Position numbers and translations under genes: made by a program. Of a stretch of DNA of 64,000 bases, positions 46,616 to 55,596 are shown piece by piece; the first letter of the stretch is position 1; the number at the start of each line of letters is the position of its first letter. Origin of the DNA: an uncultured bacterium (GTDB lineage: Bacteria > Babelota > Babeliae > Babelales > RVW-14); the NCBI GenBank assembly GCA_903825355.1, contig CAIKAH010000008.1:12048-76047 (forward strand), written 5' to 3'. A model generated the notes under the pieces. That model made no database searches. It had not been told where the DNA came from and was given only the letters and a program-made list of their open reading frames with translations.

Positions 46616-47698
46616 TTATTTATTGAAGAAAATCCTTCTAACATAGTCTTCAGCAATACCAAGCAAGTTGCTCGTTAATTGATAAAGCACTACACCCGCA
46701 GGGAATGTTGCAAATACCGCAGCAACCACAAATGCTAAGAACGTGGTCATGACTCGCTTCTTTTCGTCCACTACAGCCATTAAAGAATTTGACCAAATCA
46801 TCGCCAAGCCAACCAGTAAGGGCAAAATGTAGTATGGATCGCGTGCTGATAAATCAACAATCCAGCCAACAAATGGTGCTTGATATAGATCAATATAGTT
46901 ATTCAAAATTCTAAACAAAGCAAACAAAATCGGTAGCTGTATTAACTGAGGCAAACATCCCGCCATCTGACTTGCCGGTGACAAATCATGATCTTTATAA
47001 AACTTCATCAGTTCTTGATATTCCATGCTTTTATCATGGCGATACTTCATTTTAATACGCGTAATTGATGGTTCAAATTTAGCAAAATGATCCGTTTTTT
47101 TACGTGAGTAAATCATTAAGGGGGAGAACGGTAAACGCAATACAATAGTTAGCACAATAATCGCAATGCCAAAGTTACCAATTAGTGAATACAGATACGC
47201 TAGCAATTTGAGAAGCAACATACAGAGACTAGTAAACCACCCAAATGAAAGGAGTGGCGTCAAGCGTTCATCAATTGCTTGCAAGGAAGCTGGCTCTTTA
47301 GGCCCAAGATAAAACGAAAGATTCCATGCCATTTTTTGCGTAGCAACAGGACCTTCAAGAATACTTAGCAACGTAGTCGAATCACAACGTTTAATGTAAG
47401 CACGCTGGGTAAATCTATTAACATCACTCACTAATAGATGAGCAAAAAATCGATCTTGCCCTCCAAAGATTGGCTTCTTATCTAACCAAAACCATGCAAG
47501 CCCTTGACTAGCAGCTGGTTCGTGCGTCTCTACAGAACGCTTAGCTTCGTCCCACGCACAAATGGTCATAGTATCATCACTAATTTCTTTAATACAGGGA
47601 ACCGGAAAGAACAAGCGGGGGGGTAGCTGTAACGCCAGCATGCTTTGGATCAAACATAACTGAGACATCACACCGATAATTATCATGATAAAATACAA
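46616..47698 (-). CDS. yidC: membrane protein insertase YidC, C-terminal (Oxa1-like, 5-TM) portion; frame-shifted relative to the N-terminal portion
   Basis: Conserved insertase core (NFGIAIIVLTIVLRL...PLMIYS, GCLPQLIQLPILFALF). The first about 27 codons overlap the upstream ORF and are probably not native. Confidence 0.8.
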   Translation of the reverse strand: MYFIMIIIGVMSQLCLIQSMLALQLPPRLFFPVPCIKEISDDTMTICAWDEAKRSVETHEPAASQGLAWFWLDKKPIFGGQDRFFAHLLVSDVNRFTQRAYIKRCDSTTLLSILEGPVATQKMAWNLSFYLGPKEPASLQAIDERLTPLLSFGWFTSLCMLLLKLLAYLYSLIGNFGIAIIVLTIVLRLPFSPLMIYSRKKTDHFAKFEPSITRIKMKYRHDKSMEYQELMKFYKDHDLSPASQMAGCLPQLIQLPILFALFRILNNYIDLYQAPFVGWIVDLSARDPYYILPLLVGLAMIWSNSLMAVVDEKKRVMTTFLAFVVAAVFATFPAGVVLYQLTSNLLGIAEDYVRRIFFNK

Positions 47699-48218
47699 AC
47701 GTTTTGGTTACATGATACTGCTCGTTTTCAGCAGCAAATACTACTTCAACGCCGTCATGTCTATCTTTTTTACTTTTCAGCACATAATTAAACGGCGTTT
47801 TATCATCAACAGAAAGGAGAAAAGCTCCTTGTTGACGCTCCACCTCATCATGCACCTTTTTAGGATAAATAGTCCGAAGCGGTTTTTTATCTTTTCCATG
47901 ATGATTCTTAAATGCTAATGACTCTATTACCGCGCCATTAGGAGAGAGGTGTACAACCGTTTTTTTAGTTTCAACCACAACATCCTGAGCAACAGCAGAA
48001 ATACGTGCATTGTCAAATTTCACGCTAGTTACTAGCGGTTTATAAACAGCTTCAGCTGTTGGTACCTGTACTGGTTGACCAGCAGCCAACGAGCGAGCAG
48101 CGCCAACATCAACAGCCCCGCCTTGTGGATTCACTGGCGTCTTTTGCATAATATAATAATTAAAGATCCATACAGACCCAAGAGCAAGCGCCACCGACAA
48201 TATAAACTTCTTATCCAT
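47589..48218 (-). CDS. yidC: YidC N-terminal (TM1 plus periplasmic P1 domain) portion
   Basis: MDKKFILSVALALGSVWIFNYY anchor plus a soluble beta-rich domain. Terminates 8 codons after the C7 run. The two parts sum to about 533 aa, the size of a diderm YidC. Confidence 0.75.
   Translation of the reverse strand: MDKKFILSVALALGSVWIFNYYIMQKTPVNPQGGAVDVGAARSLAAGQPVQVPTAEAVYKPLVTSVKFDNARISAVAQDVVVETKKTVVHLSPNGAVIESLAFKNHHGKDKKPLRTIYPKKVHDEVERQQGAFLLSVDDKTPFNYVLKSKKDRHDGVEVVFAAENEQYHVTKTFVFYHDNYRCDVSVMFDPKHAGVTATPPLVLSGSLY
47617..47623. repeat. G7/C7 homopolymer at the yidC frame junction
   Basis: gcgggggggt read directly. Removing one C joins ...GVTATP to RLFFPVPCIKE... in frame. Confidence 0.9.
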
Positions 48219-48411
48219 TCAAAATACCCTTTGTCATGAAATATGCTATAAAATACGCTATTTTCAATTGAAAGCACATTGTAACAAAGATGCATCTTTC
48301 TTGCTAGGAGTCATTTTTGCCTCCCATGGTTTACAAAGCCAAACCTGCTGTGTAGGATATAATGGTTCTATTTATATATTATGCTAACAAAATAACCGTA
48401 CAGGTCCTGGT

Positions 48412-49167
48412 ATGCTGACACAAAGATATGCTCTGGTTGTTATCGCTACATTACTCATCGCTGGATGTGCAAAACATAAAACTAAAGAGACTATGAATGC
48501 TGAAGAGCTGGCTACCAAAGCACATGCTTACATCAAAAATAAGCGTCATGATGATGCTATTCAATATGTAGGCGAATTGATTTCACGGTATCCTGACCAT
48601 GCCAAAGTAGGCAAATACAAAATTTTACTGGCAGAACTACAGTTCAAAGCAAAAAATTACCATGCCGCAAAAGAGCTTTACGATAATTTCAGCGAATTCT
48701 TCCCAGCAGATAAACATGCTCAATACGCACGCTACAAAACTATCCTTTCCTCTTTCTACCAGACACTGCCAGCAGACTGCGACCAATCATACACTGAAGA
48801 AACTGCACGCCTTTGCAAAGAATATTTAGCAAAATCACCTACGAGCAAATACAGCAAAGACATTGAAAAGATCTTTGCCCAAAGCCAAGAGCGCCTCGCT
48901 GAAAAAGAGGTCTATGTGTTTGATTTCTATCTGCGCAAGCAACAGTTTGATGCTGCCCGCAGCCGTTTGGCCTATTTGAAAGAAAAGTTTGGCAAAGAGG
49001 CCACCCTAGAGCCACGTATTGCTTACCTTGAATATAAGCTGGCACTCAAAGAAAAGAAGTATGATCTTGCCGACGAGCACAAAAATAAGATCTTAGCTAG
49101 TTACCCTAACTCTCGGATTGCTGAGATGACGGTACAACTAGATAATAGGTACAACTTCACGGTCTAA
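48412..49167 (+). CDS. bamD: outer-membrane protein assembly factor BamD-like TPR lipoprotein
   Basis: Lipobox LIAGC. TPR-like repeats with ...YP.H/S... spacing. The EKEVYVFDFYLRKQQFDAARSR segment resembles the BamD C-terminal TPR. Confidence 0.65.
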   Translation: MLTQRYALVVIATLLIAGCAKHKTKETMNAEELATKAHAYIKNKRHDDAIQYVGELISRYPDHAKVGKYKILLAELQFKAKNYHAAKELYDNFSEFFPADKHAQYARYKTILSSFYQTLPADCDQSYTEETARLCKEYLAKSPTSKYSKDIEKIFAQSQERLAEKEVYVFDFYLRKQQFDAARSRLAYLKEKFGKEATLEPRIAYLEYKLALKEKKYDLADEHKNKILASYPNSRIAEMTVQLDNRYNFTV

Positions 49168-49175
49168 ACAACTTC

Positions 49176-49541
49176 ATGCTAGATACAACACTGCTCGGGC
49201 AAAAAGGTGAGGCACTCACGGTGGCTCACCTCCAAAAACAAGGCTTTACCATCCTTTCAACCAACTATCGTACACGCCGCGGCGAAGTTGACGTCATTGC
49301 CAAAAAAGATGATGTCATTGCTTTCGTTGAAGTAAAAACACGTGCCAAAAATTACTTCCCCCTCAGCCAGGTAATTACCAAACCAAAGCAACGTCGCATT
49401 GCCTCGGCTGCCATCGATTTTGCCCTTAAGCATCAGTTAACCCAGAAGATACTGCGCTTTGACGTAGCTATGGTTCAATACACTGATACCAGCCAAGAGC
49501 TGACCTATATCCCTAATGCCTTCCAAGCTGCTCGTCGGTAA
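49176..49541 (+). CDS. yraN: YraN family (UPF0102) endonuclease-like protein
   Basis: 121 aa. GEVDVIA...FVEVKTR motif of the PD-(D/E)xK-like UPF0102 family. Confidence 0.8.
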   Translation: MLDTTLLGQKGEALTVAHLQKQGFTILSTNYRTRRGEVDVIAKKDDVIAFVEVKTRAKNYFPLSQVITKPKQRRIASAAIDFALKHQLTQKILRFDVAMVQYTDTSQELTYIPNAFQAARR

Positions 49542-49677
49542 CTTTTTTTAACGCTGTCATAAAAACCACTTGTTTTCGCTAAAACCACACCACAATTGAC
49601 CGTTTGAATATTTTATCCACCCGTGGTATCCTGAAAACGGTTAAAATATGATATTTTGTGACTTTAGAGAGAAAATT

Positions 49678-52626
49678 ATGCTCAAAATCAAACACAACAT
49701 GACCCTGCACCTTTTACTGCTCACTTTTATGATACATGCACCACTGCACGCAGCAACTGGCTCTCAATCACAAGAAAAAAAACGTGTACGAGATACTGAG
49801 CACGCAGCTACTATGGCTGAACCAGCAGCAGCAGCAACATACGATGCTGAAGCTCCTACCATTGATAACAGTGCTATTGCAGAAGCAGTACTATCAGCAA
49901 TCCGCGGTGAAGATAGTGCCGCATTAACTACCTGTTGCTCTACAACGCCAAAAGAGATACTCATCACTATTCAATTGCCACATCCTACCGATAAAACTGT
50001 TCTTATTTCTCCACTAAAGTACATCACTACAGCATTCCCCCCAGCCGAACGCAAACCAATAGTGAGCAAGATGGCAATCATACTACTCAAAGCATACTCT
50101 AATGCTAGTGATACGGTTATTGAGCCTGTCGATCTCATTTTACAAAACCCCGAGATAGATGAAGAAACACGCTACCAGCTTTTCGTCCTTATACTCGGCG
50201 TAGATAAAGCAGTAGAAGAAGAACTGAAAATCATGTTAAAAAAATTGCACGATGCAGTCGATGTAGAAAAAAATATTGAAACCCTGCTACAACTCGGCAA
50301 TCCTACCCTCCTCAAAGACAATTCTATACTACTTTTAATACTAGCTGGCATCATGCTTCTTGCATCGGAACAAGCACTTCCCATTGATGAAATGCTACGT
50401 GATAAGTTATTTAAAGAGTTCATTGCCGCCGGCTGCTCCGAGGAACAAAAAACATCAGCTATTGGTCAATACATCTGTAATAAATTTTTATGTAACACCC
50501 GCCCTATTTCAGCAGAAGATTTTGATATACTCTGGGCTGAAGCACTCGATGGAAATGCTACATGCCTAGGAAAAGAAAAAGACATACCACTTCATATTGC
50601 GATAGACAATATCCTCACAAGCGCTTTACTTGCTCACGATACCAACGATGAGCTCAAAACACAGATCAATGCTTTTTTTGCAAAACCTGTAGTACAGAGC
50701 CCTGAGCGCACCATTACTATGCGAGAGCACTTATCCTCCCGCAGCAAGGCATGGGAAGCATCACAAACTCCTTCAGCAACCCTTCTTTCACCAGAAAAAA
50801 TCGCACTCGCGCATAGCCGTCTTCCTGCTCCAGTTGTTGACAAACCTACCATCACTGTTATTCCAATACCCGCGTTATTGCAAAGTTCTCCAATCGGCAA
50901 GGCATTGTACAAAGACAGTGCATCAAGTACATGGAGTAAATCTTGCAGCTTTTATGCCATTTTTCACCTCGTCAACCTGTGGCAATACAGAGATAATCCA
51001 GCTGCTCTAAAAGAGCGTCTTGGCCGTAATAACTTCAGTACATTTTTAAGCTTAACTCGATCGGCTGCTGATCTTGTCCCTATGCTCAGAGCACCGGAGG
51101 CTTTGCCTTGTACACTTATTCTTGATGATGAGAAACGATCCCGCAAAAAAGCCACTTACCCTACGCTCACTAAGCACTTAGATACTGCAGCAACTATACC
51201 GCTCGGCGGCAATAGCCTTACTGACGCCTTGCTTACCAGTTATAGCTTCCTCAGTGATGTTTCAGATCAGTCATTGCACTATGCTCCGGTAGTAGCTACT
51301 ACCGGACTTGCATGGCGCGGGGATATTCCTTGTATAGATGGTTTGAGATTTGGCATCACGTACTGCAATGCAAATGGCGACCATAATACCGAGCATACGG
51401 CCTACCTGAAAGCAGCCATTGCCAAACCTGAAGCTTTTGTTTTTCCAGTGTGTATTGAAACGCCAAAACACATGAGCAGCGGACTTGCTTACAAAATAAC
51501 TGATATACCAGGCCAACCAAAACAGTTTTATGTATTCTTTGCTGAATCCAATAACACTCCTGGCCATGAAAATAATGAATCTTCTACAAAGCCTGTTTCT
51601 TCAAAAAAAAGCGGGGCTTTTCATTTCGCAACTTTATTTCAACAATTGTTTGCCTCGTTAACAGATACACCAAGCAGAAATGATGTAGCAGTACTTGGGC
51701 CAGAAGAGACATTTCAAGGCGATGATGCATTTTGTCTATTGGAAAGCTGTAGACGACAAGTAACCTCCCCTGAACAGGTGTACACCTGGCGCTGTCCAAG
51801 TGAAGACATAGCACATATCGAAGCAGCGATTATTGATCATGACAGCCCACTGCTGGATAGACTTTGTGATCAATATGCAGCTAGTGGCATTGACCTAAAT
51901 ACTATCCGCATCAACCGCAACGTCCGCGGAGTTATGAGCGCTCAATCAGTCTCTTGCTCAGTATTAGGTATTGCAGTACTAGAAGACAATGCACAGGCAG
52001 TAAAGGTATTATGCTCTCATGGCGCCACACCACAATTGGCTGCACCACTACAATTCACCGATAACGTAGCTGATGCCTTTTCCCTGGCAATTTACCATCG
52101 CAAATGTAAGGCACTACAAGCCCTCTGCCAGTACGCCTCAGCAGAAATAAACCGCATAAGCGTCGATGATTTTGAAAGACCAACAGCACATGTAGCACTT
52201 TTAATGAAGCTACATAAATCACCAGAAATGGCTGATACCACGTATGAAACCCTATTAATTACCATGGCACAAGCACTGCTAGATCATCGTGCAGATCTTA
52301 GTGCAACCGAACATTTATTCAAGCGAACCTTGTTTCATTTTGCATTGGAAGAACACTACTTCAACTTATTTGAAATTTTATGCCAATACCCTCAGGCCAA
52401 AGATGTCATTAATCAATCAGACAGTTTTGGACATAGCACACTGTACAACATCCTCGATAATCGCAGCATTAATGAGGAACAACGCTATAACTTGACCAAA
52501 ATGGCCCTTGATGCAGGCGCATATTACGATGAATCTCTTCAGCAAGAGGTCAAGCATCGAACCCAAATAAAGTTCTGGCGTCTTGAACCGAGATTGATTG
52601 AACTGTTGCAAGACCATGCACATTGA
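49678..52626 (+). CDS. large secreted protein with degenerate C-terminal ankyrin-like repeats and an uncharacterised central domain
   Basis: Preferred start MLKIKHNMTLHLLLLTFMIHAPLHAATG (signal-like); the ORF track starts at 49648. ANK-like units SVLGIAVLEDNAQAVKVLCSHGATP, AFSLAIYHRKCKALQALCQY, TLFHFALEEHYFNLFEILCQY and STLYNILDN in about 51900-52560. Confidence 0.75.
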   Translation: MLKIKHNMTLHLLLLTFMIHAPLHAATGSQSQEKKRVRDTEHAATMAEPAAAATYDAEAPTIDNSAIAEAVLSAIRGEDSAALTTCCSTTPKEILITIQLPHPTDKTVLISPLKYITTAFPPAERKPIVSKMAIILLKAYSNASDTVIEPVDLILQNPEIDEETRYQLFVLILGVDKAVEEELKIMLKKLHDAVDVEKNIETLLQLGNPTLLKDNSILLLILAGIMLLASEQALPIDEMLRDKLFKEFIAAGCSEEQKTSAIGQYICNKFLCNTRPISAEDFDILWAEALDGNATCLGKEKDIPLHIAIDNILTSALLAHDTNDELKTQINAFFAKPVVQSPERTITMREHLSSRSKAWEASQTPSATLLSPEKIALAHSRLPAPVVDKPTITVIPIPALLQSSPIGKALYKDSASSTWSKSCSFYAIFHLVNLWQYRDNPAALKERLGRNNFSTFLSLTRSAADLVPMLRAPEALPCTLILDDEKRSRKKATYPTLTKHLDTAATIPLGGNSLTDALLTSYSFLSDVSDQSLHYAPVVATTGLAWRGDIPCIDGLRFGITYCNANGDHNTEHTAYLKAAIAKPEAFVFPVCIETPKHMSSGLAYKITDIPGQPKQFYVFFAESNNTPGHENNESSTKPVSSKKSGAFHFATLFQQLFASLTDTPSRNDVAVLGPEETFQGDDAFCLLESCRRQVTSPEQVYTWRCPSEDIAHIEAAIIDHDSPLLDRLCDQYAASGIDLNTIRINRNVRGVMSAQSVSCSVLGIAVLEDNAQAVKVLCSHGATPQLAAPLQFTDNVADAFSLAIYHRKCKALQALCQYASAEINRISVDDFERPTAHVALLMKLHKSPEMADTTYETLLITMAQALLDHRADLSATEHLFKRTLFHFALEEHYFNLFEILCQYPQAKDVINQSDSFGHSTLYNILDNRSINEEQRYNLTKMALDAGAYYDESLQQEVKHRTQIKFWRLEPRLIELLQDHAH

Positions 52627-52716
52627 AAGGCTACTAGTAGAAATGCTTCTTGGGGATTCGCCCTTTAGCAGAAATACATCTAAAACGCGCTACTAAAAGC
52701 AAATTGCCGCAAATAA

Positions 52717-54378
52717 CTAACTTAATTCTGAATGAAAACGCAACCGATCGTGTGCGATTAAGCGCGTAGCGATCACTTTAAACAGCGGAAGGGCAACTTC
52801 TGACGCCCACAATGAAGCCTTCTCTGGCTCTTTGATAAAGGTCACTATCACACGACGGTAGTTGCCGTGCTCAATAATACCACCAAAGCTGTACTGGTGT
52901 AATTGCGTTGAATACTTGCCATCAACAATACAGCGAGCAGTTCCCGTTTTACCCATAATACGCACCCCAGGCAGTTGGTGCTTTTCAGCCACTTTTTCCA
53001 TAATATTTTTCAAATCAGCAATAGCGTCATCACGATAGAGCTTTTTGCCTTTACTACGCTTTTCCTCAAGCAGCACTGTTGGCCGCACATCATAACCACC
53101 ATTTGCTACTATACAAAAAGCGCGAGCCAACTGCATAATCGTCGCCATCATTTCATAACCAAAAGACATAACAATGAGCGATGGCTTACTCCACTGTGCT
53201 GGTGGATTAACAAATCCTGAACGTTCACCAGGGAACTGGACCCCTGTTTTTTCACCAAAACCAAGGCGACGATAATGCTCATACAGTTTTTTATCTAACC
53301 GCTTAGCTACTTTTGCAATACCTACATTACTTGAATAGCGCACTACTTCATTAAACGGCAAAATGTTATTGCATTCTTTAAGCTTATGTAACAAGGTGTA
53401 GGTTGGATTTTCAATTTTTACACCATCAACATACCCAAATCGACCTTCGCAATCAATCTGTTCATCATAAGCCACCACCCGCTCCTCAAAAGCAGCCAGC
53501 GCACAAAATGCTTTCATTACTGAGCCAAGCTCATAGCACTCACTTACTGCTCTATTTTTCATTGCTTCAAATGCCGTCACTCCTTTTTTATTAGGATCAA
53601 ATACAGGATAGCTAGCCAAAGCAATAACATCCCCAGTATCAGGATTAAGCACTACTGCGGTACCAGATTTTGCTTTCAATTCGGTAATTTTTTTCTGTAA
53701 CTCATAAAATACAATTTCTTGTAAATGCCGATCAATCGTAAGCCCCAATTTTTTGCCCTGCTTGCCTGCATTAGTTACCGCCCGATCAAAATAAAATGCG
53801 CCAGAACGAGCATCTTTTTGCAAAGAGAGCGTCTTTGCTTCGCCCCCTAAATGATTATTGAAACTCAGCTCTAGACCTGCAATTCCTATGTTATCAATAT
53901 CAGTCAAGCCAACTAACTGTGCTACCCCTTGGTAAGGATAGTAGCGTGCAAACTCATCAATGAAATGTATGGCTAAGTCAGTGCGTTTTTGCAAAGCTGC
54001 AGCTTGATTATCGGTCATTCGACGAACTAACCACAAAAAATGTTTATCAGGGTGCTTACAAAAACGCTTGAATACCTCGGGAAACTGTTTTTTTATAAAC
54101 TGCATAGTAGAAGATTTTTTTTCTAAGGCACTAGGAACAATAAAGGCAGAAAGTGCCCTTCGATTAAACACTAAAGGGTATTGCAACGATGCATCAAATA
54201 TAACGCCACGGGCAGGCACTACCTTAATTTGTAATTCGTACTGCTGGGCTGCCAATTCTTGAAAGAAATTATTTTGCTTGATTTGTAATAAAAAAAGCCG
54301 AGCCACCACTACAGCAAATAAGCTACAAAAAAACAAAAACACAAGCAACATGCGCAATTTATGATCTCGCCCCAGCAT
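52717..54378 (-). CDS. ftsI: peptidoglycan D,D-transpeptidase (class B PBP, FtsI/PBP2-like)
   Basis: N-terminal TM anchor. SxxK (GSVMKAF), SxN (YSSNVG) and KTG (GKTGTA) motifs in the correct order. Confidence 0.88.
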   Translation of the reverse strand: MLGRDHKLRMLLVFLFFCSLFAVVVARLFLLQIKQNNFFQELAAQQYELQIKVVPARGVIFDASLQYPLVFNRRALSAFIVPSALEKKSSTMQFIKKQFPEVFKRFCKHPDKHFLWLVRRMTDNQAAALQKRTDLAIHFIDEFARYYPYQGVAQLVGLTDIDNIGIAGLELSFNNHLGGEAKTLSLQKDARSGAFYFDRAVTNAGKQGKKLGLTIDRHLQEIVFYELQKKITELKAKSGTAVVLNPDTGDVIALASYPVFDPNKKGVTAFEAMKNRAVSECYELGSVMKAFCALAAFEERVVAYDEQIDCEGRFGYVDGVKIENPTYTLLHKLKECNNILPFNEVVRYSSNVGIAKVAKRLDKKLYEHYRRLGFGEKTGVQFPGERSGFVNPPAQWSKPSLIVMSFGYEMMATIMQLARAFCIVANGGYDVRPTVLLEEKRSKGKKLYRDDAIADLKNIMEKVAEKHQLPGVRIMGKTGTARCIVDGKYSTQLHQYSFGGIIEHGNYRRVIVTFIKEPEKASLWASEVALPLFKVIATRLIAHDRLRFHSELS

Positions 54379-54380
54379 TA

Positions 54381-54977
54381 CTATACCTTCTCGACAGTAA
54401 CATTACTTAATGAAATCCATGCATCGAAAAAAGGTTTTTCATCTGCTGCCAATTGTAGGGATTCTGCCATTAACGACGTATCAAGCCGCGAAAGACGGTC
54501 AGCAATCATTGCTAGATCATGCTCTTTTCTCATAGATGACATAGCTGTTTTTTCCCATTTTGTTTTTTTTACTTCTCTTAGACACCGTGAGCTTATAGAT
54601 GAAGACGAGATATTTTTATACCCAGACTGGAAAGGCAACGTAACGGGAATCCCACAGTGCGCAAGTACTGCTGCTGTGGAAGAAGTTCCCACAAAATCAA
54701 CAACAGCAACACTCGTTGTTGAAATGATTGCTTCTAATGCTATAGGCAGCATGCCTTTCTGTTCTGCCTCCGTCATTAATGTAATAGGCTGTTGCTGTTC
54801 GTATAAGGAAACTAACAATTCATTACGCTCTTTTTCAAGCAGAGCAAATTTCCTCCCCAAACGCTGCTGCTCATACGAAGTCTTGATGTATAGGTTGTAC
54901 TGGTAAATTTTAATAAATACGGTACCAAGAATAAGCAACAACCAAAGGTGTACTGAAATAAAACGAATCTTATACAT
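54381..54977 (-). CDS. FtsL-like bitopic cell-division protein with extended C-terminal domain
   Basis: TM segment ISVHLWLLLILGTVFIKIY followed by a coiled coil (EQQRLGRKFALLEKERNELLVSLYEQ). Its stop lies 2 nt before the ftsI start. Function inferred from position and architecture only. Confidence 0.45.
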   Translation of the reverse strand: MYKIRFISVHLWLLLILGTVFIKIYQYNLYIKTSYEQQRLGRKFALLEKERNELLVSLYEQQQPITLMTEAEQKGMLPIALEAIISTTSVAVVDFVGTSSTAAVLAHCGIPVTLPFQSGYKNISSSSISSRCLREVKKTKWEKTAMSSMRKEHDLAMIADRLSRLDTSLMAESLQLAADEKPFFDAWISLSNVTVEKV

Positions 54978-55092
54978 AGCTATCCTAGGCTTTAAAATAC
55001 CTTCTAAATCAAAACTATCTATACGAGGAGTTTTTTTCTAGATATTATTCTCTATTACAAAATCTGATACTTAAAACCTGCAAGGATCTCTT

Positions 55093-55572
55093 ATGAAAAA
55101 AAAATTAGTTTCCTTTTTAGTGTCAATAACCGTTCTCGTTAGTTTTTCCAGCTGCGACTGGTTTAAAAAACACGATTCATGCTCATCATGCAGCAGGCAC
55201 CAACATTACAAAAAAAAATCTGCAACAGAGCTTGTCCAAACAATCAAATCAAAAGCCGCATTTGAGCAACTTATCACTACCGCTACTCAGCCAGTGGTTG
55301 TTAAATTTGGCGCTCATTGGTGTGGGGCCTGTCAAGAAATGAAGCCTATTCTTGCAGAAGTAGCCGCTGCAACAAAAGACCGTTATATCATTGCCTCAGT
55401 GGAACTTACTGAAGTAAAAGAGCTACAAGAGGAACTCGGAATAAAGGGTATTCCGGTGATCTATCTTTATAAAAACGGCAAGGAAGTGCCTGTCAGCCAC
55501 CATCCGACAGGAGTAATTAGCGCTGAAAAACTACTTATGTTTTTAGCCGAACACTTTGATAAAGCTTCTTAG
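55093..55572 (+). CDS. exported (possibly lipoprotein) thioredoxin-fold protein, WCGAC active site
   Basis: Signal sequence MKKKLVSFLVSITVLVSFSSC. Thioredoxin motif FGAHWCGACQEMKP. cis-Pro region GIPVIYL. Confidence 0.8.
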   Translation: MKKKLVSFLVSITVLVSFSSCDWFKKHDSCSSCSRHQHYKKKSATELVQTIKSKAAFEQLITTATQPVVVKFGAHWCGACQEMKPILAEVAAATKDRYIIASVELTEVKELQEELGIKGIPVIYLYKNGKEVPVSHHPTGVISAEKLLMFLAEHFDKAS

Positions 55573-55596
55573 CCTTCTTTATATTTGGAAATCATT

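Follow-up and report, generated by a model that had tools for sequence, protein, structure and literature searches.

An ankyrin-flanked protein family of Dependentiae with a candidate papain-order cysteine peptidase centre at a hypervariable locus

Josephin-like deubiquitinases (DUBs) built around Cys-His-Asp triads are known from Simkania, Parachlamydia and Burkholderia, and some of these bacterial Josephins act as 'clippases' that cut ubiquitin after Arg74 (10.1101/2024.07.24.604956). In most families of DUBs and of proteases acting on Gly-Gly ubiquitin-like (UBL) modifiers, the residue directly after the catalytic histidine is a conserved aromatic, a gatekeeper that touches Gly75 of ubiquitin and shuts out larger P2 side chains (PMC7391069). 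The Dependentiae, which are widespread and almost uncultured parasites of protists, encode hundreds of ankyrin-repeat (ANK) proteins with signal peptides to which no activity has been assigned; in the cultured member Chromulinavorax, 78% of 98 ANK proteins carry a signal peptide, and the Sec system alone has been proposed for export (PMC6561590). Here we analyze an open reading frame (ORF) for a 982-residue ANK protein from an uncultured bacterium of this phylum, located in a 64,000-nucleotide stretch (hereafter the window; contig CAIKAH010000008.1, positions 12,048 to 76,047) of a 1.39-Mb assembly in 57 contigs (GCA_903825355.1). On balance, we lean towards viewing the central module of this protein as a divergent papain-order thiol peptidase, with C423 and H598 at its active site, that serves as an effector aimed by its ankyrin repeats, a reading that draws on transitive remote homology combined with the geometry of conserved motifs.

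The central module defines a small family. When 1.8 billion representatives were searched exhaustively with phmmer, only nine relatives sharing residues ~296-712 came up; the matches of all relatives begin at ~293-302, and those confined to the module stop at ~674-717. The module consists of an N-terminal helical extension and a putative cysteine peptidase core of papain order, with ~150 amino acids (aa) of helical sequence inserted. Signal-like N-termini and ANK flanks recur in most of the relatives. Strong matches to the module occur in 2 of 261 Dependentiae species genomes, marking the family as rare in the phylum, and scans of genome contigs and metagenome contigs for more module homologs brought nothing new. 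Word-based homolog searches found the two closest relatives only, and the last such run returned the query alone. Five of the relatives lie on one 642-kb metagenomic contig, where four form a near-tandem array. This array (L005:6861-19154) carries paralogs of 997, 934, 720 and 776 aa between dnaB and recF/dnaN and is broken by an ANK-only ORF and by ruvC; the fifth paralog (574 aa) is found away from the array, in another part of that contig.

Alignment of 11 family members, which diverge down to 22% identity, leaves ~20 of 321 module columns (~6%) invariant, including Q402, Y411, W419, C423, Y426, H430, R450, S462, Y494, Y522, H598 and S624, with E623, N625 and H630 nearly so. The candidate catalytic residues (Q402, C423, H598 and E623) are thus all invariant apart from E623, which is replaced by Asn in one member (P0012) next to the invariant S624. 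C423 is the sole invariant cysteine, kept in 11/11 members down to 22-25% identity, and falls within SCSFYAIFHLVNLW. A preliminary description of the window, made from the sequence alone, had singled out this cysteine and its surrounding signature as possibly papain-like; both prove to be real, with the cysteine at the N-terminus of a predicted helix. The description had also placed the codon correctly (50944-50946), although its number for the residue, Cys433, belongs to a 992-aa frame and becomes C423 in the 982-aa protein. Two histidine motifs had been offered alongside it. The one in KHMSSGL is borne out, its histidine being the invariant H598 at the start of a predicted beta strand, whereas GDHNTEH is not conserved, and its histidines fall in a variable, gapped stretch of low predicted local distance difference test (pLDDT) score.

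We modelled the module with AlphaFold2 from 11- and 12-sequence alignments. The model of residues 385-705 reached a pLDDT of 71 and a predicted template modelling score (pTM) of 0.77, that of residues 296-712 a pLDDT of 75 and a pTM of 0.78, and the core elements scored pLDDT 81-91. In both models, as assigned by DSSP, C423 opens a 14-residue helix and H598 opens a strand directly after a hairpin turn; E623-S624-N625 stand just past the end of the antiparallel strand that follows the strand of H598, and a loop, a helix and a further strand come next. As modelled, the order of elements around C423, H598 and E623 is that of papain-type enzymes such as Josephin and UCH.

A domain profile, searched through the 261 Dependentiae genomes, provided a link between the module and a second family. 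Two small ORFs matched weakly at the Cys-helix region, with E-values (E) of ~0.007 per genome that taken alone are at chance level. The homology between the two ORFs themselves, however, spans Cys, His and Asp motifs, and they represent an unannotated family (Q...CGYYA...HW...DS; alignments A6 and A7) present in 12 of the 261 genomes (L015-L027), which we term the bridge family. In the A6 alignment, Q35, C46-G47, Y49-A50, R74, H162-W163 and S182 are invariant and D181 nearly so, a set that, read from its motifs, is a complete papain-order Gln...Cys...His-aromatic...Asp series. Alignment of the target family to A6 with hhalign gave a probability of 67% (E 5e-5), and adding two members from the target's own genome to A6 raised this to 73-77% (E 2-3e-5, 63 columns). 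Overall, the significant span covers 48-63 columns, comprising LPxLxQ, the Cys helix and the Arg motif; it brings the two Gln residues into register, the target carrying 15 extra residues as an insert, and R450 lies 27 residues past the cysteine, as against 28 for the Arg of NDRxLF in the bridge family. Controls with reversed and 30 column-shuffled profiles gave E 0.28 or worse. Reciprocally, the A6 hidden Markov model (HMM) ranked the target ORF first (E 6e-4) among the 2,969 six-frame ORFs of at least 80 aa in its own genome. These data indicate, with reasonable confidence, that the N-terminal half of the module is homologous to the bridge family. A permissive hhalign path also aligns His to His.

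The next two matches of the A6 HMM in the target's genome were ORFs on contigs C33 and C49 with the same motifs. The C33 ORF (C33_+2_1630, 361 aa from its ATG) reads LPCLQQ...CCAFYA...HF...LIDS and has a signal peptide and a Pro/Ala-rich linker, and the C49 ORF (C49_+0_9948, 571 aa) reads QQSGAQCGAYS...GHW...VCDS and has hydrophobic segments; neither matched any Pfam model. Because the target family has H-[MAGVL] and E/N-S in place of the invariant His-Trp and Asp-Ser, it is, on its motifs, a distinct derived branch and not a plain member of the bridge family.

The bridge family itself points towards UBL proteases. Its members score 24.1 and 21.8 bits on the Pfam Josephin model (cut-off 26; E 3.7e-5) and 20.0 bits on Peptidase_C48 (cut-off 20.7), with Peptidase_C78 and ElaD/SseL likewise below threshold, and the bridge profile matches a CE-clan Orientia DUB in the PDB (E 2e-4); all of these matches fall on the H-W...D-S hairpin. 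We take this hairpin, together with a Cys motif of the type Q-x-x-N-G-x-C-G-[YF]-[YF]-A, to resemble motifs of C48 (Ulp1/SENP) proteases in permuted order. In the bridge family the residues follow the order of Josephin and clan CA, namely Gln, Cys, His, Asp. Proteases of the CE clan are regarded as circular permutants of the papain fold (PMC13720258), a relationship that would account for the cross-matches to CE models. Since bridge-family members score just under the PF02099 cut-off (24.1 versus 26), the direction in which the preliminary description had pointed, 'loosely Josephin-like', appears defensible. Its broader papain-like hunch is partly supported, through the bridge family and motif geometry, and finds no direct family or fold match.

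The target family departs from canonical DUBs at the gatekeeper position. After H598, the 11 members carry Met (in the target itself), Ala (seven times), Gly, Val and Leu, whereas in the bridge family His-Trp is invariant (His-Phe in the C33 ORF). Features of the target family's own are the invariant H430 (Cys+7), the nearly invariant H630 and the ~150-residue helical insertion. Because the gatekeeper is missing and these residues and the insertion are particular to the family, we do not file the target as a Josephin or a deubiquitinase. The specificity of the module is probably non-canonical, and canonical Gly-Gly deubiquitination by it seems doubtful; the more specific suggestion of a deubiquitinase in the preliminary description is not supported, given that no aromatic follows H598 and no DUB model or structure is matched in Pfam or Foldseek.

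Besides the absence of the aromatic gatekeeper, several results weigh against a peptidase. Foldseek searches of both models against the PDB (twice) and BFVD (once) gave no usable match; the best E was 0.2-1 with a probability <0.15, no peptidase appeared in the top 50, and although the library contained Josephin, UCH, OTU and CE structures, none matched. Modelling and fold comparison thus showed neither a peptidase fold nor a different known fold. There was also no match to any peptidase family in Pfam, NCBIfam or the PDB sequences. The link of the bridge family to Josephin lies under the Pfam cut-off and competes with the CE-clan matches. Aligned alone, the C-terminal halves of the two families give His to His as their top alignment, but at E 0.065; judged from the alignments, what links the His/acid half of the module to the bridge family is no more than the shared order of conserved residues (H598 paired with H162, E623-S624 with D181-S182), and E623 corresponds to the Asp of the D-S motif by motif and spacing, without significant alignment.

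The individual searches were as follows. A Pfam-A hmmscan of all 11 family domains at E<=10 matched no model, Josephin included, and an NCBIfam search of the module returned nothing. PF02099 (Josephin, MEROPS C86), searched over the whole genome at E<=10, missed the target ORF; PF01088 (UCH, Peptidase_C12, MEROPS C12) matched nowhere in the genome, and the target ORF had no Pfam match to NlpC/P60 or CHAP. With hhalign, the module aligned to four unverified UCH sequences over 13 columns around the cysteine only (E 0.14), and the target to three unverified Josephin sequences without significance. Searched against Pfam, NCBIfam and PDB sequences, the protein, the domain and all family members gave nothing beyond ANK apart from a marginal match to the ERCC4-like domain of FANCM (A2 profile versus PDB, E 0.003, over the helical insertion), which we rejected as chance because it was the sole XPF-family hit, both models make the region helical and it found no support from Foldseek. 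An R-S-E arrangement of ADP-ribosyltransferase type (R450/S462/E623) was discarded, as helices contain both R450 and S462, an OTU assignment was rejected with neither H-x-D/N nor D-x-x-C present, and the C-x5-R motif of protein tyrosine phosphatases is absent.

Coordinates of the features are collected in Table 1. The ORF at 49678-52626 is uninterrupted, and the 982-aa protein of the preliminary description is real. Within the stop-to-stop frame, an upstream ATG at 49648 would give 992 aa; we place the start at ATG 49678, because the N-terminus that follows it pairs with those of homologs over the first 30 residues (MLKIKHNMTLHLLLLTFMIHAPLHAAT versus MTLIKTIIKQCLLLSLLIALVPLNGAT) and a purine run, AGAGAGA, stands upstream. 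A promoter/terminator scan of the gene was uninformative. The signal-like N-terminus noted earlier resolves by eye into a basic n-region, a 16-residue hydrophobic core and a c-region ending in HAA before T; by the same inspection, most of the 11 aligned homologs have comparable leaders, P0009 and P0010 being without one. Among homologs that bear a name, the nearest is annotated 'ankyrin repeat domain-containing protein [Candidatus Dependentiae bacterium]'.

The C-terminal ankyrin domain is degenerate in single-sequence searches, scoring 22.1 bits on Pfam Ank_2 against a threshold of 27.3. A four-sequence profile of residues 707-982, compared with the PDB, matched designed ANK proteins, gankyrin, TRPA1 and others with a best E of 7.5e-12, so the repeats are detected by a profile method and the degenerate ANK C-terminus proposed at the outset stands; Pfam ANK matches are present in 10 of the 11 family members, up to E 9e-49. 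At the other end, residues 55-295, where a 'helical repeat region' had been proposed, resemble the ANK-like module at the C-terminus of the same protein only weakly (hhalign E 0.0076).

Table 1. Features of the ORF and its locus in window coordinates.
Feature	Position	Strand	Basis
Whole ORF, 982 aa plus stop	49678..52626	+	N-terminus from 49678 ATG aligns with homologs P0002/P0003
Sec-type signal-peptide-like leader (MLKIKHN, MTLHLLLLTFMIHAPL, HAA before T)	49678..49755	+	Inspection by eye
Decayed N-terminal helical/ANK-like region, residues 55-295	49840..50562	+	Weak self-similarity to C-terminal module
Conserved central module, residues 296-712	50563..51813	+	phmmer boundaries of relatives; AlphaFold pTM 0.78
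Q402, proposed oxyanion-hole Gln	50881..50883	+	Invariant; LPxLxQ motif after strand beta1; aligned to A6/A7 invariant Gln
C423, proposed nucleophile	50944..50946	+	Invariant; first residue of 14-residue helix; aligned to invariant Cys of CGYYA
R450 (RNNFSxFL)	51025..51027	+	Invariant; matches invariant Arg of NDRxLF in bridge family
H598, proposed general base	51469..51471	+	Invariant; first residue of strand after hairpin turn; His-to-His with A6
E623-S624-N625, E623 proposed His-orienting residue	51544..51552	+	Just past end of next antiparallel strand
C-terminal degenerate ankyrin-repeat domain, residues 713-982	51814..52623	+	Profile versus PDB E 7.5e-12; Pfam Ank_2 sub-threshold
Variable island, yraN to ftsI	49526..52703	.	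DNA homology to sister genome ends at 49525, resumes at 52704

The gene occupies an accessory, hypervariable locus between housekeeping neighbours, with pyrG, pepP, recR, yidC, bamD/YfiO and yraN upstream and ftsI, ftsL, trx and cysS downstream. Outside the island, the flanking DNA is 85-88% identical to that of a sister genome, in which an allele, P0003, occupies the same slot between yraN and ftsI. Fourteen flanking proteins are 79-99% identical between the two genomes, whereas the target protein is 46% identical to its counterpart; its first 236 residues give no alignment to P0003, whose N-terminus is a clear ANK duplicate with which residues 55-295 of the target do not align. Between P0003 and ftsI, the sister genome also carries a 254-aa Fic/DOC-domain gene on the minus strand (L006:12892-13656; Pfam E 6e-22); because this gene is absent from the window, the content of the island differs and not the allele alone. 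In a congener, ftsI directly follows yraN and the site is empty. By the Nei-Gojobori method, the flanking genes have nonsynonymous distances (dN) of 0.007-0.05 and synonymous distances (dS) of 0.08-1.0, highest beside the island, and the target and P0003 have dN 0.49 with dS saturated. As dS is saturated, exchange of old divergent alleles by recombination would explain the locus better than simple acceleration, and the rise of dS toward the island resembles the trace that an import by recombination, with the island at its centre, would leave. No meaningful repeats of the kind that would point to a mobile element flank the island. Across window positions 46007-56919 compared with L006, dS values are cysS 0.08, recR 0.25, ftsI 0.59, yraN 0.90 and bamD 1.05.

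Elsewhere in the window, yidC is present as two overlapping ORFs of 360 aa (46616-47698, minus strand) and 209 aa (47589-48218), where the sister genome has a single 533-aa gene; the split is consistent with a frameshift or an assembly error. A 799-aa ORF (43595-45994, minus strand) between pepP and recR has no Pfam match and is 95% identical in the sister genome. The USP-like ORF and the canonical signal-peptide ANK protein reported earlier are both present in the window. Around the USP-like gene, positions 75-14295 hold six large ORFs (721, 324, 373, 558, 559 and 1363 aa) with no Pfam family at E<=0.001.

Under the reading that we favour, the protein would be an effector that an intracellular parasite of the Dependentiae (Babeliales) exports through Sec and that ankyrin repeats guide, and residues 296-712 would form a strongly diverged, insertion-expanded member of the papain-order cysteine peptidase superfamily. 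Q402 would then contribute to the oxyanion hole, C423, at the N-terminus of its helix, would be the nucleophile, H598, at the start of its beta strand, the general base, and E623 (Asp or Asn in relatives), on the neighbouring antiparallel strand and followed by the invariant S624, would orient the histidine; a 15-residue insert would part Gln from Cys, and between the Cys helix and the His hairpin would stand a helical lobe of ~150 residues. Binding of a host target, and its presentation to the active-site thiol, may fall to the C-terminal ANK domain and to the decayed N-terminal one. Because the residue after the catalytic histidine is small or aliphatic and not aromatic, the P2 pocket probably accepts residues other than Gly, and the substrate would more likely be a host protein, or a UBL modifier cut non-canonically, than canonical Ub-Gly-Gly. 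The leader, the ANK repeats, the paralog arrays and the behaviour of the island fit a protein that is probably a host-interaction effector.

A bolder version of this scheme, which we advance only tentatively, is that the family is a new group of cysteine hydrolases, descended from Josephin-like ancestors and changed in specificity, whose alleles are exchanged at a fixed slot as arms-race effectors. Loss of the gatekeeper, gain of H430 and H630, and the 150-residue lobe would have enabled the enzyme to cut, or to modify in some other way, a protist target other than the canonical ubiquitin C-terminus, for example by clipping irreversibly within a ubiquitin-like tail or by cleaving a host protein that the ANK domain holds. 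The alleles would be old and highly divergent, swapped by recombination.

Other explanations must be set against these. The module could be a canonical Josephin-type or other CA-clan DUB that removes ubiquitin at Gly76 from targets on the host or on the bacterial surface, for which triad geometry and the homology chain speak exactly as they do for a divergent peptidase. The genome encodes secreted USP-type DUB-like proteins, the USP-like ORF of the window among them, as well as two more Q-C-H[W/F]-D-S ORFs, so ubiquitin is a plausible target of the lineage, and DUBs of the ZUFSP class likewise lack the aromatic motif (PMC7391069). We nonetheless judge a canonical DUB unlikely: M, A, G, V or L follows the catalytic His in all 11 members, whereas His-[FYW] is highly enriched in DUBs and Gly-Gly UBL proteases (PMC7391069) and H-W is invariant in the bridge family, and neither the Pfam Josephin and C12 models nor Foldseek connects the target ORF to a DUB. 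The same Cys-His scaffold might instead support a different chemistry, such as glutamine deamidation, transglutamination, acyl transfer or a ligase-like reaction. Several papain-fold bacterial effectors act as deamidases or transglutaminases, and the large family-specific helical lobe, the lost gatekeeper and the residues invariant here and not in the bridge family (H430, Y411 and, in the helical insertion, S462, Y494 and Y522, with H630 nearly so) would suit such a departure; yet no similarity of sequence or structure to any such family was found, and the nearest detectable relatives resemble UBL proteases, which makes another chemistry rather improbable.

It is similarly improbable that the module has no enzymatic activity and serves for binding or as a scaffold, being a domain of novel fold specific to the lineage, its Cys and His having a structural or metal-binding role and its likeness to the Q-C-H-D family being a pseudo-enzyme remnant or motif convergence. 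The rapid divergence of the protein, the lack of any Foldseek or family match and the confinement of significant homology to 48-63 columns would all be in keeping with such a domain. Pseudo-enzymes, however, usually lose catalytic residues, whereas here Q, C and H are invariant with E or N at the acid position, and these catalytic-type residues are kept across very divergent paralogs, five of them in one genome; moreover, the spacing of C423 and H430 (i, i+7) is unlike a metal site, and C423 has no conserved Cys partner. A housekeeping hydrolase of the periplasm or envelope, for example an NlpC/P60-type amidase working with ftsI/ftsL and bamD, would sit naturally between bamD-yraN and ftsI-ftsL, and the protein has a putative Sec leader only. 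We regard it as very improbable, as the gene is missing from the congener slot, where yraN abuts ftsI, has strong matches in only 2 of the 261 phylum genomes, is represented by a 46% identical allele amid 79-99% identical flanks, and encodes ANK repeats and no match to NlpC/P60 or CHAP.

The divergent thiol peptidase that we favour, or more broadly a thiol hydrolase effector, would fit a known theme, that of papain-fold effectors of intracellular bacteria, and the evidence tips somewhat towards that placement. It would give one signal-peptide ANK family of the Dependentiae a candidate catalytic centre, Q402/C423/H598/E623. The search also exposed a wider unannotated Q-C-H-D peptidase-like family in the phylum, in 12 of 261 genomes with two further ORFs here, and together the Q-C-H-D families may offer an entry point to effector biochemistry in Dependentiae. 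With its gatekeeper missing, the target family is a candidate for unusual cleavage specificity, a property that, in the bacterial Josephin clippases, has proved useful as a research tool. Finally, an ancient divergent allele within near-identical flanks suggests recombination-driven effector diversification in a reduced genome.

Compared with known systems, statistically supported similarity extends to the bridge family only. A6 and the target have in common LPxLxQ, the C-[GSA]-[FY]-Y-A helix, R-x-x-F, the His strand and [DEN]-Ser. The bridge family, however, has a ~190-aa core with invariant His-Trp and Asp-Ser and a Gln 6-20 residues before Cys, whereas the target family has a ~410-aa module with no Trp, Glu-Ser, an additional invariant H430 and near-invariant H630, and ANK flanks. 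In the CE clan (Orientia OtDUB, PDB 6UPS; Peptidase_C48) the order is His-Asp-Gln-Cys, unlike the Gln-Cys-His-acid order of the target and bridge families. The Legionella Lot-class OTU DUBs (PMC10133868) offer a possible analogy, being effector proteases of papain fold with a large helical lobe inserted between the Cys helix and the His strand, as predicted for the target; the target differs in showing no OTU motifs and no sequence or Foldseek similarity to OTUs.

With Josephin (ATXN3, JOSD1/2; PF02099, C86), the target appears collinear in its strand-Gln, its C-x-x-x-x-[LI]-x-x-L-[LV]-[NQ] Cys helix, the helical arm, the His strand, the (N/D/E)-Ser strand and the helix and strand that come after; the Gln lies 5 residues before Cys in Josephin as against 21 in the target, and the target has no His-Trp. 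Among the bacterial Josephins, SnJOS, PcJOS, BpJOS and PaJOS (10.1101/2024.07.24.604956; PMC13720258) are effectors of intracellular bacteria, including amoeba-associated Chlamydiae, as the target putatively is. Like the one proposed for the target, their Cys...His...Asp triad is of papain order, and its acid sits one strand beyond the His. PcJOS likewise has an N-terminal helical extension before its core, and some members of this group cut ubiquitin at a non-canonical position.

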